64,000 nt of DNA from a bacterium (GTDB lineage Bacteria; Sysuimicrobiota; Sysuimicrobiia; Sysuimicrobiales; Kaftiobacteriaceae), in assembly GCA_044868695.1 (NCBI GenBank), contig JBIOWP010000084.1, positions 11,659 to 75,658 on the forward strand, in the 5' to 3' direction. Shown piece after piece: positions 36,051 to 52,877 of this stretch. Numbering within the stretch: the stretch's first letter is position 1; the number at the start of each line of letters is the position of its first letter. A model generated the notes under the pieces. It saw only the letters and a list, made by a program, of their open reading frames with translations. It was not told the origin of the DNA and made no database searches. Made by a program: the position numbers and the translations under genes.

Positions 36051-36542
36051 TTACGCCTGCAGGTCCGCGCGGAGGTCGTCCATCTCGACCACAAGGCGCG
36101 CCTGCGCGATCTGCGCCTTGGGCAGACGCACCTGCCGGTCATCCACCTGCAGGATCACCGCGTCCCCTATGACCCCCAGCAGGATGCCGCGGAAGTGCCG
36201 CTGTCCGTCGACCGGGCCGTACGTCGTAATCTCCGCTTTCCGGCCCGCAAACCGGCGGAAGTCCGCGTCGGAGCGGAGCGGCCGGTCGAGTCCCGGCGAT
36301 GACACCTCCAGCGTGTAGCGGTGCACGAAGATGTCATAGAGATCCAGCTGCCGGCTGAGGGATTCGCTCACCCGCGCGCACTCCTCCACGGTGATGCCCC
36401 CCTCGGGACGGTCCATCAACACCCGCAGCACCGTCCGGTGGGCCTCCCCTGAGACCGACACGTCCACCGTTTCCAGTCCAAGCCGCGCCGCGATCGGCCG
36501 CAGCAGCTCTTCCACCTGTGCTACCACGTCCTGGCGTGTCAT
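36051..36542 (-). CDS. rimP: ribosome maturation factor RimP
   Basis: Conserved start [28 protein letters not shown] at 36542 (163 aa). The track ORF is over-extended to 36665. Confidence 0.85.
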
Positions 36543-36559
36543 CGTCGTCCTTTTCCCAT

Positions 36560-36591
36560 AAAAAAGAGTGGGCCGAGACCTCCACCCACTC
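36560..36591 (-). terminator. intrinsic terminator in the rimP-nusA leader (candidate NusA-autoregulatory attenuator)
   Basis: Minus-strand RNA: GAGUGGG-UGGAGGUCUCGG-CCCACUC followed by UUUUUUAU, ending about 18 nt before the rimP ATG. Confidence 0.5.
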
Positions 36592-36641
36592 CGCAACGCT
36601 CCCAAGGCGGGAGCTCCCCATCCCTCTTGCGCCGCGCGTTG

Positions 36642-36670
36642 CACGCGACAGCCCAAGTATAGCACGCACC
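36642..36670 (-). promoter_or_regulatory. putative sigma-A promoter of the rimP-nusA-infB operon (TTGAAG, 17 bp spacer, TGc-TATACT)
   Basis: Minus strand reads cgTTGAAGcggccgggggtgcgtgcTATACTtggg about 95 nt upstream of rimP. Confidence 0.45.
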
Positions 36671-36766
36671 CCCGGCCGCTTCAACGCCGCCGCCGCGCGG
36701 TCTTCACGGCACGGGCGGGAAGAAAGCGCCGCCCGCGCAGCGAAGCCCCTTCTACGGAGGCGGACG

Positions 36767-38059
36767 ATGCTCATCAGGATCGAAGACGCGGCAGCGCACA
36801 CAGGGACGGAGATTGAAGTCCGGGGCTGGCTGTACCACCGGCGCAGTAGCGGAAGCATCCACTTCCTGATGATCCGCGACGGGTCTGGGCTCATGCAGGC
36901 GGTCCTGGCCAAGCAAGACGTCTCGCCCGCCGTGTTTGCCGCCGCCGCCGAAGCGACCCAGGAATCGGCTATCGTCGTGAAGGGAGTGGTGCGGGCAGAC
37001 CAGAGGGCGCCCGGAGGATTTGAGCTGACGGTCCGGGACCTGCGCGTCGTCCAGCAGGCGGCCCCCTACCCCATCACCCCAAAAGAGCACGGCGTCGAGT
37101 TCCTCATGGACCACCGCCACCTCTGGCTGCGCTCCCGGCACCAGCACGCGCTGATGCGCGTCCGGGCCGAGGTAATCCGGGCCGCCACGGAGTTTTTGGA
37201 TACTGCCGGGTATCTTCGCGTGGATGCCCCTATCCTCACGCCGGCGTCCGTGGAGGGCACCACGACGCTGTTCGAGACGCCCTATTTCGACCTGGGCAAA
37301 GCCTATCTGACGCAGTCGGGGCAGCTGTACAACGAAGCGGCCGCGATGGCATTCGGCCGGGTGTACTGCTTCGGCCCGACGTTTCGCGCGGAGAAGTCCA
37401 AGACCCGGCGTCACCTCACGGAGTTCTGGATGCTTGAGCCCGAGGCCGCGTACATGACCCTCGACGAGTACATGGATCTGGCCGAGGCCCTCGTCTGCGC
37501 CATCGTGGGGCAGGTGCTGGAGCGCCGCCTGACGGAGCTCCAGGTCCTGGAGCGCGACGTCGCCAAACTCCAGGCCGTACGCCCGCCGTTCCCGCGCCTG
37601 TCATACGATGAGGCGCTGGCGAAACTCCGGGCCGCGGGCACACCGCTTCCGTGGGGGGACGATCTCGGCGGCGACGAGGAAACGGTGATCTCGTCTGCGT
37701 TCGACCGTCCGGTCTTCATCCACCATTATCCGGCGCAGTGCAAGGCATTCTACATGCAGCCGGACGACGATCGCGCCGAGGTCGTGCTCTCGGCGGATCT
37801 GCTGGCCAGCGAAGGGTACGGGGAGATCGTCGGCGGAGGCCAGCGCATCCACGACCCGGGGCTGCTGCAGCGCCGGCTGCGGGAGCACGGGCTGCCGGAG
37901 GAAGTCTACCGGTGGTACTCGGACCTGCGGCAGTACGGATCGGTTCCGCACTGCGGGTTCGGGATCGGCATCGAGCGCACGGTGGCCTGGATCGCGGGCA
38001 TCGAGCACGTGCGCGAGGCGATTCCGTTTCCGAGGCTCTTGAACCGCCTCTATCCGTAG
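36767..38059 (+). CDS. asnS: asparagine--tRNA ligase
   Basis: Conserved start [13 protein letters not shown] at 36767 (430 aa). Class IIb motifs: [35 protein letters not shown]. The track ORF is over-extended to 36518. Confidence 0.9.
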
Positions 38060-41057: not shown

Positions 41058-41146
41058 GGGGGAACGCGGGAACGGGGGAACGCGGAAACACGATACGGTC
41101 CGACGTTAGCGCCGCGTTTCCTCGCTTCCACGTTTCCGTGTTTCCG
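41058..41146. repeat. tandem-hexamer inverted-repeat hairpin element (GGGAAC/GGAAAC units) between the convergent sugar permease and bcp
   Basis: Left arm gggggaacgcgggaacgggggaacgcggaaacacg, 20-nt loop, right arm cgcgtttcctcgcttccacgtttccgtgtttccg. The right arm encodes the Bcp C-terminal tail TETRKRGSEETRR. Confidence 0.55.
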
Positions 41147-41606
41147 TTAGTTGTTTCAGCGCCTCCAGCACTGCGGCGCTGTGGCCGCTGACCTGCACCT
41201 TCGGGAACACTTTCACGATCGTCCCGTGCTCGTCGATGATGAACGTCGTCCGCGCGACGCCCCAGTACGTCTTGCCCATCATGGATTTCTCCGCCCAGAC
41301 CCCGTACCGGTTCGCGACGGCATGATCCGTGTCGGCCAGCAATGGGTGAGGAATCCGCAGCTTCTCCTTCCACCTGGCGTGGGACTCCACCGTGTCGGTG
41401 CTCACGCCCAGGATCTCCGCGTGCAGGGTCGTATAGGCCGCGTAGTCGTCACGGAACGCGGTGGCCTCGATGGTTCAGCCGGCCGTGTCATCCCGGACGT
41501 AGAACCACAGCACGACCCTCCTGCCGCGAAAATCCGAGAGTGCCACCCGCCGGCCGTGATCGTCCGTCAGCGTGAACTGCGGAGCCGTTTCGCCTTCTGC
41601 AACCAC
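41106..41606 (-). CDS. Bcp/PrxQ-type peroxiredoxin with in-frame TGA (41475..41477) at the peroxidatic-Cys codon; candidate selenoprotein (PrxU-like), alternatively a nonsense pseudogene
   Basis: Two track ORFs (41475..41723 and 41106..41405) are in the same frame, separated only by the TGA. Joined product: [58 protein letters not shown]...GVSTDTVESHARW...YGVW..MGKTYWGVARTTFIIDEHGTIV. It aligns to E. coli Bcp FYPKAMTPGCTVQACGLRD with the TGA at the Cp position. GTG start at 41606 is preceded by AGGAGGAG. A GC-rich hairpin begins about 10 nt 3' of the UGA. Confidence 0.6.
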
Positions 41607-41674
41607 TGGAGTCTCCTCCTGCGCGCCACGTGCGCGCACGAAGACATTAGACCCGGTCCGGCGAACTCCCTGTC

Positions 41675-42352
41675 GTGATGCGGCCGGACGAAGTCGCGCT
41701 GATCTTTGATCTCGACAACACACTGCTCATGTCCAACATCGACTTCCTGGCGGTGCGCCACCGCCTGATCGATCTCCTCGAGCATGCGGGGGCGGCCGGG
41801 CCGCCCCGCGACGCGCTGGTGCCCCTCGCACTGCCGGAGCTGGTGGCCCTGGGCGCCGCCGCCAGCGCGTCCCTGGCCGACGCGATGTGGGAGGTCATCC
41901 GGCAGGCGGAGCTTGCCGGCCTGGCCGGCGCGACGCTGGACGCGGCGGCCCCCGTCGTGCTTGAGGCGTTCCGCGCCCGCGGGTTCCAGCTCGCGATGCT
42001 GACCAACAACGCCAGCGAGATGCTGGCGGAGGTGCTTGCCACCTTCGGCCTGGCCCAGTACTTTCGTGTGATGGCCGCCCGCGACACCGTGCCGGCGCTC
42101 AAGCCCGCGCCCGACGGGATCCGCCACGTGCTGGCGCAGCTGGCGGGCATCCGCCGCGCCTACATGATCGGCGACGCCTGGATTGACGCGGGCGCCGCAC
42201 ACGCCGCCGGCGTGAGATTCATCGGCGTCGGTCCCAGGCGGGATACCGTGGAAGCGCGGGGGATTCCAATCTGGGCGTGGGCGGACGATCTGTCGGCGCT
42301 GCTGACGCTGGACCTTGTGGGGAAGGCGCGCGACAGGGAGTCGGAGAGTTGA
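41675..42352 (+). CDS. HAD-superfamily hydrolase (phosphoglycolate-phosphatase-like)
   Basis: 225 aa. Motif I IFDLDNTL, motif III K, motif IV GDAWIDAGAA. Confidence 0.8.
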   Translation: MMRPDEVALIFDLDNTLLMSNIDFLAVRHRLIDLLEHAGAAGPPRDALVPLALPELVALGAAASASLADAMWEVIRQAELAGLAGATLDAAAPVVLEAFRARGFQLAMLTNNASEMLAEVLATFGLAQYFRVMAARDTVPALKPAPDGIRHVLAQLAGIRRAYMIGDAWIDAGAAHAAGVRFIGVGPRRDTVEARGIPIWAWADDLSALLTLDLVGKARDRESES

Positions 42353-42430: not shown

Positions 42431-42829
42431 TTACCAGAGATGCTTGAACTTGGCCGCAAACCGCCGCTCCATCTCCTCTTGATGGAGCGCGTACACCGGG
42501 CATTCCCGGAGGCGGCAGATATGCAGCGCGGTATTGCAGTACGCCTCGGACAGCTCCCAGCACTTCTTGTTGACGAAGTACGCGGCGCACACCCCCTTCT
42601 TCGGGTGCAGCACCAGCTCGTCCAGCCCCCGGACCGGCTCGGGGACCGCCGGGGAAGCGTCACGCACCAGCCGCAGGATGGGCCGGTCGGCCGGCGCCGG
42701 CTCCCGCGAGGCGGGAGGCTTCGGCGGGACGGCGGGAGCGGGTGCCGACGTGAACGCCGCGAGCTCGGCCGAGGTGTCCTGGATGAACGCCCTAATGCCG
42801 CGCCGCAGTTCCTCGCGTTCTTTCCTCAT
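42431..42829 (-). CDS. hypothetical Cys-rich protein (C-terminal CX8CX7CX6CX4C cluster)
   Basis: 132 aa. The last gene of the ParA-like cluster; its 5' end overlaps the ParA stop. No family recognised. Confidence 0.45.
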   Translation of the reverse strand: MRKEREELRRGIRAFIQDTSAELAAFTSAPAPAVPPKPPASREPAPADRPILRLVRDASPAVPEPVRGLDELVLHPKKGVCAAYFVNKKCWELSEAYCNTALHICRLRECPVYALHQEEMERRFAAKFKHLW

Positions 42830-43649: not shown

Positions 43650-44042
43650 TCAGCGATCCAGGAGCCAGGCCAGGCGCCGGTCGACGGCGTCCAGGACCGC
43701 GGCAACCGCGGCGTCCTCCAGCGGTCCGCCCCGGCCGAGCGCGCTCCCGACCAGGTGCTCCTGTCCCCGCGGCGTATCCACGACGACGTGCGTCACCACC
43801 GCGGGTCCGGCCCCTACGAGCTCACTGCTCGCTCGCTGGAGCACGAACGTTGTGTCCGGCGGCGCCACCTGGCGGACGGCTTGGACCGCGGCTTCCGCCG
43901 CGACCTGCACCCCGCCCGACTCTCCGGCCGGACGCTCGACCCGTGCGGTGAGCACGGTATCGTCGTGCAGCAAATTCACAGTGACCGCCACGCGTCCCGG
44001 CGTCCGTTCGACGCGAACCCCTGCCACCCGCAGCCGCGCCAT
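43650..44042 (-). CDS. hypothetical protein with an internal duplication of a ~60-aa domain
   Basis: Conserved-looking start MARLRVAGVRVERTPGRVAVTV. Two similar halves, each ending in an AAEAAVQAV / AAVAAVLDAV helix. First gene of the ParA-like cluster. Confidence 0.45.
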   Translation of the reverse strand: MARLRVAGVRVERTPGRVAVTVNLLHDDTVLTARVERPAGESGGVQVAAEAAVQAVRQVAPPDTTFVLQRASSELVGAGPAVVTHVVVDTPRGQEHLVGSALGRGGPLEDAAVAAVLDAVDRRLAWLLDR

Positions 44043-44201
44043 TCTCCCCCGCCCGCACAGAGTCAGCGGCACGTACCTGCGGGGGGCGGCAAGGCAGCGT
44101 GTCGTGCGCTATCCGCAAGCCTGTTCGACTCAGTTGAGAGGTTTTCCTCTATGAGACCAGAACTGCTACAAGTACCGCGTTCCAGGCGAGGTGGTTGACT
44201 G

Positions 44202-51317: not shown

Positions 51318-51542
51318 CACATTTCCCCGCCGTGCCGTGAGGCAGAAGTTCCCGAACCTGCACTAAGCAGGTGGGTGCCCTCCTGGCCGCTCCTGAGATC
51401 CCCGACGTGATGGGGCGTGTCATCGGCGGTCAGAGCCCGGGCTCCCAGTGTATTCGGTGTTGGATCGGAACTATCGGCCCACACGCACACGGCAGGAACC
51501 CTGCTTACGGCCATCGTACGCCCCAGGGCACGAAATTGCAAT

Positions 51543-52877
51543 CTAGGGGTGGAGTCTGGTGGGTCCCCGGTAGATGTAGGTCACCTCGCGGATGCTGGGC
51601 CGGTTGAGCAGGACCATCAGCATACGGCTCAATCCGAACCCGAATCCCCCGTGCGGCGGACACCCATATTTGAAGAAGTCCAGATAGAACTGGATCGGCT
51701 CCAGGCTCAGCCCCGCCTCTTTCGCCTGCGCCACGAGCACGTCGTACCGGTGCTCGCGCTGCGCGCCGGTGCTCATCTCGATGCCGTTCCACAGGAGGTC
51801 GAAGCTCTTGGTGGTCGCCGGCGCGTGGTCGTACCGCATGTGGTAGAAGGCTCTCACAGCGGCCGGGTAGTCGGTGACAAACACGAACTGGTGCCCGAGT
51901 TCCAGGGCGGCGTACTCGCCGATCATCCGCTCCCCGGCCGGGTCGAGGTCGCCCCTGCGCTCCGGCGTGTGCCCGCGCAGGGCGACGATGCGCAGGACCT
52001 CATCCATCGGGATGCGCGGAAACGGGATCTCCGGCACGATGACCTCGGCACCGAACGCCTCCCGGATCTGTGGGCCGAACTCCTCCCGCACGCGCCCCAG
52101 CGCATGCTGCAGCCAGCGTTCTTTGAAGGCCATCACATCCTCATGCGACTCGATCCATGACATCTCCATGTCCACACTGGTGAACTCCGTGGCATGGCGC
52201 GGGGTGAACGACGGGTCGGCGCGGAACGCCGGTCCGATCTCGAAGACACGATCGAACCCGGCGGCCATCGCCATCTGTTTGTAGAATTGCGGGGATTGCG
52301 CCAGATAGGCCGGGCGTCCGAAGTAGTCGAGCGTGAACAACTCGGCTCCCGACTCACTGGCGCTGCCCATCAGCTTCGGCGAGTGGATCTCGATGAACCC
52401 CTCATGGATCCAGAATTCCCGCATCGCGTGCTCGACGGCCGTCTGGACGCGGAAGATGAGCAGATTCTCGGGGTGGCGCAGGTCGAGCATCCGCCAGTTG
52501 AGCCGGACCTCCGGATTTGATTCCTGGGGGCCGGACACGTCAAGCGGGAGCAGGCGGTCGGCCAGTCCCTCGACCCGCAGGTCTCGGATGGCGATCTCGA
52601 CCCCGCCGGTCTTGACGATTGGGTTCTCGACCACCGTGCCGGTCACCGTCACCGCCGACTCGCGGGTGAGGGATGCGATGGTGTTGTTGATGGCGCTCTT
52701 CCCTGGGCTGCGCTCGGTGGTCGCCTGGGCCAGTCCCGTATGGTCGCGGAGGATAAGGAACTGCACGCGTTTCTGGTCCCGGATGGTCCTGACCCACCCG
52801 CAGACTTTCACCTCGCGCCCGACATGCGAGCGGAGGTCTCTGATGAGGGTGCGCCCCATGGCCGGCATCCCGCTCAC
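51543..52877 (-). CDS. aspS: aspartate--tRNA ligase, archaeal/eukaryotic type (class IIb)
   Basis: 444 aa. FEIGPAFRADPSFTPRHATEFTSVDMEMSW and GGFGFGLSRM motifs. Downstream of hisS as in Bacillus. True start is probably the Met at residue 7. Confidence 0.85.
   Translation of the reverse strand: MSGMPAMGRTLIRDLRSHVGREVKVCGWVRTIRDQKRVQFLILRDHTGLAQATTERSPGKSAINNTIASLTRESAVTVTGTVVENPIVKTGGVEIAIRDLRVEGLADRLLPLDVSGPQESNPEVRLNWRMLDLRHPENLLIFRVQTAVEHAMREFWIHEGFIEIHSPKLMGSASESGAELFTLDYFGRPAYLAQSPQFYKQMAMAAGFDRVFEIGPAFRADPSFTPRHATEFTSVDMEMSWIESHEDVMAFKERWLQHALGRVREEFGPQIREAFGAEVIVPEIPFPRIPMDEVLRIVALRGHTPERRGDLDPAGERMIGEYAALELGHQFVFVTDYPAAVRAFYHMRYDHAPATTKSFDLLWNGIEMSTGAQREHRYDVLVAQAKEAGLSLEPIQFYLDFFKYGCPPHGGFGFGLSRMLMVLLNRPSIREVTYIYRGPTRLHP

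Follow-up and report, generated by a model that had tools for sequence, protein, structure and literature searches.

A putative selenocysteine-containing Bcp/PrxQ-type peroxiredoxin gene with a conserved SECIS-type hairpin in Candidatus Sysuimicrobiota (CSP1-3)

Studies have shown that some bacterial peroxiredoxins carry selenocysteine (Sec) in place of the peroxidatic cysteine. For example, "Prx, COG1225 (Bcp)/PF00578, motif TxxU, WP_011365628.1" is listed as an established prokaryotic selenoprotein family (PMC9312934, PMC13188914), and PrxU of Eubacterium acidaminophilum is the only Sec peroxiredoxin for which the reviews cite experimental support (Sohling et al. 2001, via PMC9312934). In this study, we analyzed a gene on the minus strand (41106..41606) of a 64,000-nucleotide stretch of a Sysuimicrobiota genome (assembly GCA_044868695.1, contig JBIOWP010000084.1), called here the window, in which an in-frame UGA stands at the peroxidatic position of a Bcp-type peroxiredoxin. 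We believe that this locus is very probably a functional gene for a Sec-containing Bcp/PrxQ-type peroxiredoxin. Sec-containing Bcp peroxiredoxins are already an established, bioinformatically defined selenoprotein family, and the kind of gene reported here is not new.

The gene runs from a GTG start codon (41606-41604) to a TAA stop codon (41108-41106), and the orthologue start lies at the same position. Its 167 codons contain a single internal TGA (41477-41475 in minus-strand reading), which is codon 44 and occupies the peroxidatic Cys/Sec position of a T-A-G-U motif, and the product has 166 residues including U44. The original prediction had joined two minus-strand open reading frames (ORFs), 41475..41723 and 41106..41405, across this codon; the ORF list places both in one frame, and the stretch between them (41406-41474) is open, so that the joining was correct. 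A Shine-Dalgarno-like GGAGGAG, read from the sequence at 41613..41619 (minus strand), lies 6 nucleotides (nt) 5' of the GTG, and no sigma-70-like promoter was found upstream of the gene. The public gene calls contain a 99-residue fragment instead (41106..41405, minus strand), an artefact produced when the gene caller halts at the UGA and picks up again from an internal GTG.

For the family searches, the U of the protein was replaced by C. The joined product matched Pfam AhpC-TSA (PF00578) with E = 3.7e-37, and it matched the NCBIfam equivalog of the thioredoxin-dependent thiol peroxidase Bcp (NF006960/PRK09437) with 154 bits, above the cut-off of 140, over residues 3-152 of the protein and positions 5-154 of the 156-position model. 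The best solved relatives were Bcp/PrxQ structures (5enu, 3drn, and Xanthomonas campestris Bcp, 3gkk/5iiz). These results agree with the earlier claim that the joined ORFs encode a full-length Bcp-type peroxiredoxin. The accompanying description as a PrxU-like selenoprotein could be kept only in part: the comparative evidence given below strongly supports a Sec peroxiredoxin, whereas the PrxU equivalog (NF040737) scored 60 bits, far under its cut-off of 270. PrxU of E. acidaminophilum also has Sec at the peroxidatic position, but it belongs to a different peroxiredoxin subfamily (233-position model) and is an analogue of the window protein instead of a fellow member. On its sequence, we assigned the gene to the known Bcp/TxxU family of Sec peroxiredoxins and not to PrxU.

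Cys-type Bcp/PrxQ proteins (E. coli Bcp, 5enu, 3drn, and 3gkk/5iiz) are homologous to the window protein over the full length, are equal in size, and have the active-site Thr and Arg in common with it, but they carry a peroxidatic Cys, a Pro at position -7 and a resolving Cys at +5 and require neither a UGA nor a selenocysteine insertion sequence (SECIS). The Bcp/TxxU family shares with the window gene the Bcp thioredoxin fold, the UGA at the peroxidatic Cys, and a SECIS just 3' of it over the F-R-D codons, and the window protein was 50-58% identical to the best members among the matches listed. We compared the protein with the best 119 Cys-form Bcp homologues and with 115 other Sec forms among the matches listed. 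The position of the TGA was that of the Cys of T-x-x-C in 119/119 of the Cys homologues and in the solved Bcp structures, in line with the original alignment to the peroxidatic Cys.

To place the gene among its relatives, the pattern GAYACNSCNGGNTGAACNNNNGARGC (D-T-[PA]-G-UGA-T-x-E-A) was scanned across one genome per GTDB species, and at least 120 loci were obtained. At least 116 of these were Bcp genes that are intact and carry TGA as their peroxidatic codon (116/120 among the matches listed, the remaining four being chance matches). Among the matches listed, the sources were Acidobacteriota, Gemmatimonadota, Eremiobacterota, Desulfobacterota, Chloroflexota and others, mostly metagenome-assembled genomes (MAGs) of the first four. 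Sec-containing Bcp genes are very common in reference genomes. The TGA at the catalytic codon is more than a chance signal, as it recurs in six independent assemblies and in 26/26 diverged orthologues (see below).

The 99-residue fragment was the sole form of the locus in the protein databases, where it occurs on contigs of two NCBI MAGs and of four Logan assemblies that stem from different samples, and the best full-length matches there were 57-59% identical and all Cys forms. A DNA-level search of the JGI metagenomes gave 29 loci, 26 of which encode proteins with an amino acid identity of 64-78% to that of the window; their nucleotide identity was 68-77%. No relative above 59% is present in the protein databases because gene callers break the relatives that contain the TGA. 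The order of genes at the orthologous loci was S41 protease, CCA-adding enzyme, FBPase class 3, an ORF, a ParA-like gene, an ORF, HAD hydrolase and Bcp, followed by an optional ABC transporter, an AsnS-like gene, NusA and IF2, and the neighbour proteins were 46-95% identical between the window and these loci. This shared neighbourhood indicates that the metagenome loci are true orthologues. Codon 44 was TGA in all 26 of the 26 orthologous loci, with open and conserved sequence on either side, and in 21/21 distinct full-length orthologues; TGC was found at this codon only in two distant metagenome matches (41-45% identity). The comparison of relatives for Cys or TGA, which had been proposed as a check of the Sec assignment, was thereby decided in favor of TGA. 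The best named Cys homologue ("Armatimonadota bacterium", 58% identity) was considered as a Cys orthologue and rejected, its gene neighbourhood being different.

Bacterial Sec insertion is directed by a stem-loop just 3' of the UGA, as in the SECIS of E. coli fdhF. In the published bacterial SECIS (bSECIS) model, the loop has 3-9 nt and a G among its first two nucleotides, after which G or U usually stands, the distance from the UGA to the loop is 16-37 nt, the stem has 4-16 bp, and the minimum free energy (MFE) is <= -7.5 (PMC13188914). For 20 distinct sequences of the clade, an alignment of the 75 nt surrounding the UGA was made. An uninterrupted invariant block, CCGCGUUCCGUGAyGAhUACGCGG, occupied positions +14 to +37 past the UGA and was surrounded by freely varying synonymous sites; only two of its nucleotides vary, and both are unpaired, one being the final base of the loop and the other the initial base of the bulge. 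In the window, this element is CCGCGUUCCGUGACGACUACGCGG (41438..41461, minus strand), and it starts 13 nt after the UGA. The lower stem of 6 bp (CCGCGU/ACGCGG, 41461-41456 with 41443-41438) was paired in 100% of the sequences, and the fold adds two upper pairs (U41455-A41446 and C41454-G41447), a 2-nt 3' bulge (41445-41444) and the apical loop CGUGAC (41448..41453), which covers the codons of Arg52 and Asp53 and whose G-U is expected to contact SelB.

The codon usage within this block was also constrained. Of the 53 conserved columns of four- or sixfold degenerate codons, only 3 never change, namely Ala GCG, Arg CGT and Ala GCG, and the block contains all of them (hypergeometric P = 4e-5). When all conserved degenerate columns were counted, 6/82 were invariant, and five of these fell in the six columns of the block (P = 1.3e-6). 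The loop codon CGT makes up 6.2% of the Arg codons in the genes of the window, yet it was used in 21/21 orthologues. The hairpin had an 8-bp stem and a 6-nt loop, CGUGAY, with an MFE of -9.1 to -9.9 kcal/mol. With G at the second loop position followed by U and a distance of 21 nt from the UGA, it agrees with the published model, from which it differs in that the stem is interrupted by the 2-nt 3' bulge. As for the hairpin originally drawn at this place, the CCGCG/CGCGG core with its GU-containing loop proved to be conserved, whereas the outer GGCC/GGCC helix did not, and the element starts 13 nt and not about 10 nt after the UGA. The outer helix was rejected on the finding that its G21-C51 pair forms in 3/20 sequences. 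No Rfam family matched the hairpin at the gathering threshold over the window or at E values up to 10 on 41350-41520.

A CGUGAY loop closed by C-G and U-A was found on covarying stems in at least 13 other Sec-Bcp genes among the matches listed, and pair 18:31 occurred in them as CG, UA, AU and GC, which are compensatory changes. The SECIS of the window clade differs from those of the family by the 2-nt bulge below the CGUGAY loop. In the examples inspected, the SECIS hairpins of Sec-Bcp genes also occurred in several registers, namely GCGUGCGG-GUU-CCGCGACGC, CCAGUUC-16 nt-GAACUGG, and stems that close directly on CGUGAY.

The alternative that survives best is that the UGA is read through without Sec, either by near-cognate or suppressor decoding as Trp, Cys, Gly or Arg, or by Cys carried on tRNA-Sec, and that the product is a non-selenium enzyme. 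Such a reading would fit the failure to find Sec machinery in the window and its flanks, and the soil and sediment habitats, in which selenium is perhaps scarce. However, a conserved SECIS-type hairpin at SECIS distance is needed by SelB decoding and not by simple read-through, and the UGA occupies a redox-active Cys position, at which function is preserved by Sec or Cys only. The same arrangement was present in at least 116 homologous genes among the matches listed, from phyla known to use Sec. Moreover, TGA is the main ordinary stop codon here and terminates 25/51 genes of the window, more than any other stop; a genome-wide reassignment of UGA was ruled out by this count. A screen for other coding frames interrupted by TGA in the window gave ordinary gene junctions only. 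We consider read-through without Sec to be improbable.

Selection on both sides of the UGA was evaluated by the method of Nei-Gojobori, with the window gene compared with each orthologue. The ratio of nonsynonymous to synonymous substitution rates (dN/dS) was 0.09-0.32 across the 43 codons before the TGA and 0.12-0.30 across the 106 codons past it, with dS of 0.7-1.7. Purifying selection past the TGA indicates that the sequence after the UGA is translated. This result bears on the possibility that the locus is a pseudogene, in which a TGC/TGT-to-TGA nonsense mutation struck an ordinary bcp and the location at the catalytic codon is coincidental. A single base change is sufficient to turn TGC into TGA, the public annotation treats the locus as a 99-residue fragment, the active-site motif is odd, with Val and Ala each in the place of a Pro and Thr in that of the resolving Cys, and no Sec genes lie in the window. 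Nevertheless, the TGA was kept in 26/26 orthologues that differ at about 30% of their nucleotides, and with dS at 0.7-1.7 these are not recent copies of one sequence. No additional stops or frameshifts were present, which also answers the earlier concern about decay; dN/dS stayed low past the TGA while dS was saturated; synonymous sites were frozen in the downstream hairpin; and the unusual motif residues are themselves conserved in the clade. A pseudogene is thus a very remote prospect.

Still less credible is a locus with two products, a 43-residue N-terminal peptide that ends at the TGA and a 99-residue C-terminal protein for which translation begins anew at GTG 41405. This is what gene callers report, but the 23 codons from the TGA to GTG 41405 are conserved as protein and are under purifying selection, neither piece would hold a complete thioredoxin fold or the active site, and GTG 41405 is an internal Val codon that encodes the conserved Val of an L-G-V-S motif. 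A one-base sequencing or assembly error has only the general prior that MAGs contain errors in its favor and can be dismissed, as the TGA is identical in 7 independent assemblies and the orthologues come from about 20 unrelated metagenomes. Over 601 nt, the six other assemblies repeat the window sequence bar one synonymous change, with TGA in all; this rules out a read error and is uninformative on selection. We regard pseudogene, split gene and assembly error as excluded in practice.

The active site of the putative Sec peroxiredoxin differs from that of the Cys forms in several residues. The motif Thr, Thr41 (codon 41484..41486, minus strand), was Thr in 21/21 distinct full-length orthologues, and Arg119 (codon 41250..41252, minus strand, in GVARTTFIID), which corresponds to the Arg conserved in peroxiredoxin active sites, aligned with the Arg of GIERSTFLID in PDB 5enu and was kept in the orthologues. 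The resolving Cys at +5 was present in 119/119 Cys forms vs 49/115 other Sec forms among the matches listed; that is, it was missing in 66/115 Sec forms and in 0/119 Cys forms. In the window protein its place is taken by Thr49, as originally noted, in keeping with a 1-Sec mechanism in which no resolving Cys takes part; the clade of the window gene has Thr, Ser or Ala there. Sec forms typically lose the resolving Cys, and its absence therefore fits the selenoprotein interpretation; the resolving Cys defines the 2-Cys subtype and not the Bcp/PrxQ family. The window clade is distinguished within the Bcp/TxxU family in that the resolving Cys is missing and most members lack Cys altogether: 20/21 clade sequences contain no Cys anywhere, and the window protein is among them. 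Trp or Phe at position -10 was also common in Sec forms among the matches listed, and Tyr stood there in 118/119 Cys forms. The differences at the resolving-Cys position and at -10 suggest a systematic remodelling of the active site after the replacement of Cys by Sec.

Position -7 sets the clade apart from both groups. Pro stood there in 119/119 Cys forms and in 114/115 other Sec forms among the matches listed, as is expected of P-x-x-x-T-x-x-C/U, whereas the clade has Val in 20/21 sequences (Val37 in the window, codon 41496..41498, minus strand) and Ser in one. Val in place of the otherwise universal Pro is a clade-specific trait.

From what is established about Sec decoding in bacteria and about 1-Cys peroxiredoxins, we propose the following course for the expression and function of the gene. 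Ribosomes starting at GTG 41606 would reach the UGA at 41477-41475, where the hairpin at 41461-41438, with its loop CGUGAC and 13 nt past the UGA, would recruit SelB-GTP-Sec-tRNA(Sec). Sec would be inserted at codon 44, and translation would go on to the TAA at 41106. In the 166-residue enzyme, Sec44 would lie in the T-x-x-U site together with Arg119, and peroxide would oxidize it to the selenenic acid. Because the protein has no second Cys, an external thiol reductant, presumably thioredoxin or a similar protein, would be needed to reduce Sec44 via a mixed selenenylsulfide, giving a "1-Sec" cycle. The analysis itself shows the structure of the gene, its family, the conserved UGA, the purifying selection acting on either side of that codon and the nucleotide-level constraint on the hairpin; the participation of SelB and tRNA-Sec, the incorporation of selenium, the activity as a peroxidase and the nature of the reductant are what we infer.

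Several observations weigh against a functional Sec peroxiredoxin. The universal peroxiredoxin Pro is Val37 here, so that peroxidase activity is not guaranteed; since this Pro is absent, we class the protein as a divergent Bcp/PrxQ member by homology and presume its catalytic equivalence. The 64-kb window and the flanking sequence that was retrieved contained no selA, selB or selD and no tRNA-Sec gene. Within the clade there was no covariation, as the stem is invariant, so that pairing is unproven there. The folding energy was unexceptional compared with dinucleotide shuffles (z = +1.03 for 81 nt and -0.9 to -1.9 for 28 nt), and being unremarkable in a GC-rich context, it was not used as evidence. 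Across the family, the enrichment of stems was modest, with stems of at least 5 bp in 88% of genes vs 64% of synonymous-codon shuffles. As regards tRNA genes in general, the window and 21 related loci contained none. With these points taken into account, the conservation of the UGA, the selection on both sides of it and the constraint on the hairpin still lead us to hold that a Sec-containing Bcp/PrxQ-type peroxiredoxin is very probably encoded.

A further suggestion is much more tentative. The clade might constitute a distinct, lineage-specific "1-Sec, zero-Cys" peroxiredoxin subtype and at the same time give the first evidence of Sec decoding in Ca. Sysuimicrobiota (CSP1-3), which we consider possible and rather doubtful. 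If so, Sec may have permitted the loss of the Pro, and this loss may reflect a changed substrate or reductant. Whatever its rank, the clade, with its change of Pro to Val and its lack of Cys, is a natural experiment on the peroxiredoxin active site, and its cleanly delimited 24-nt SECIS is directly testable.

As a single marker, the RecA of the window is 90-95% identical to proteins of uncultured bacteria, of which those with names are "Bacillati bacterium ANGP1 / Candidatus Segetimicrobium" and "Armatimonadota bacterium"; Ca. Segetimicrobium is a member of Ca. Sysuimicrobiota (CSP1-3), which makes this the probable phylum of the gene. The gene implies the use of Sec by, probably, CSP1-3/Sysuimicrobiota, a widespread soil phylum that is abundant in deep soil. 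Selenium genes are unmentioned in the CSP1-3 paper and its supplements, and no link of CSP1-3 to selenium biology was found in the searchable literature. Every public assembly that holds the gene mis-annotates it as the 99-residue fragment, and the orthologues are hidden from the protein databases, where the best matches reach 57-59%, vs up to 78% for the orthologues recovered by DNA-level search. These hidden orthologues illustrate how the selenoproteomes of uncultured phyla are under-counted.

The 3' end of the Sec-Bcp gene has a repetitive structure. Its final codons, about 12 in number, consist of three repeats with an 8-nt period (ACGGAAAC-like; window 41058-41145), and the C-terminal tail that they encode, TETRKRGSEETRR, has no counterpart in the orthologues. 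Three complementary 8-nt repeats (GUUCCCSC-like) follow in the intergenic DNA directly past the TAA, and the two sets combine into an inverted repeat of 33 nt that encloses the stop codon (41106-41108) with 76% complementarity. The folding energy of this inverted repeat was unexceptional (z = -0.95); the structure may be a terminator, or it may be an inserted repeat element by which the ORF was lengthened.

In the neighbourhood, a three-gene ABC sugar-transporter cassette lies between the Bcp and AsnS-like genes and is missing in some orthologous loci, in which the Sec-Bcp gene and the rest are kept. The two ORFs on either side of the ParA-like gene, 42431-42829 and 43650-44072 (both minus strand), have no Pfam match, and both hold their position in the orthologous loci with 47-80% identity. 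The window also contains two class-II aminoacyl-tRNA synthetase genes of the Asp/Lys/Asn type, 36518-38059 (plus strand) and 51543-52877 (minus strand), 13 kb apart, both with Pfam tRNA-synt_2 and an OB anticodon-binding domain; one adjoins the ABC sugar-transporter genes and the other adjoins hisS. Finally, a full-length 6S/SsrS RNA was identified at 51320-51501 (minus strand), with 79.3 bits against a gathering score of 46.4 for Rfam RF00013, which was the sole Rfam family found in the window.

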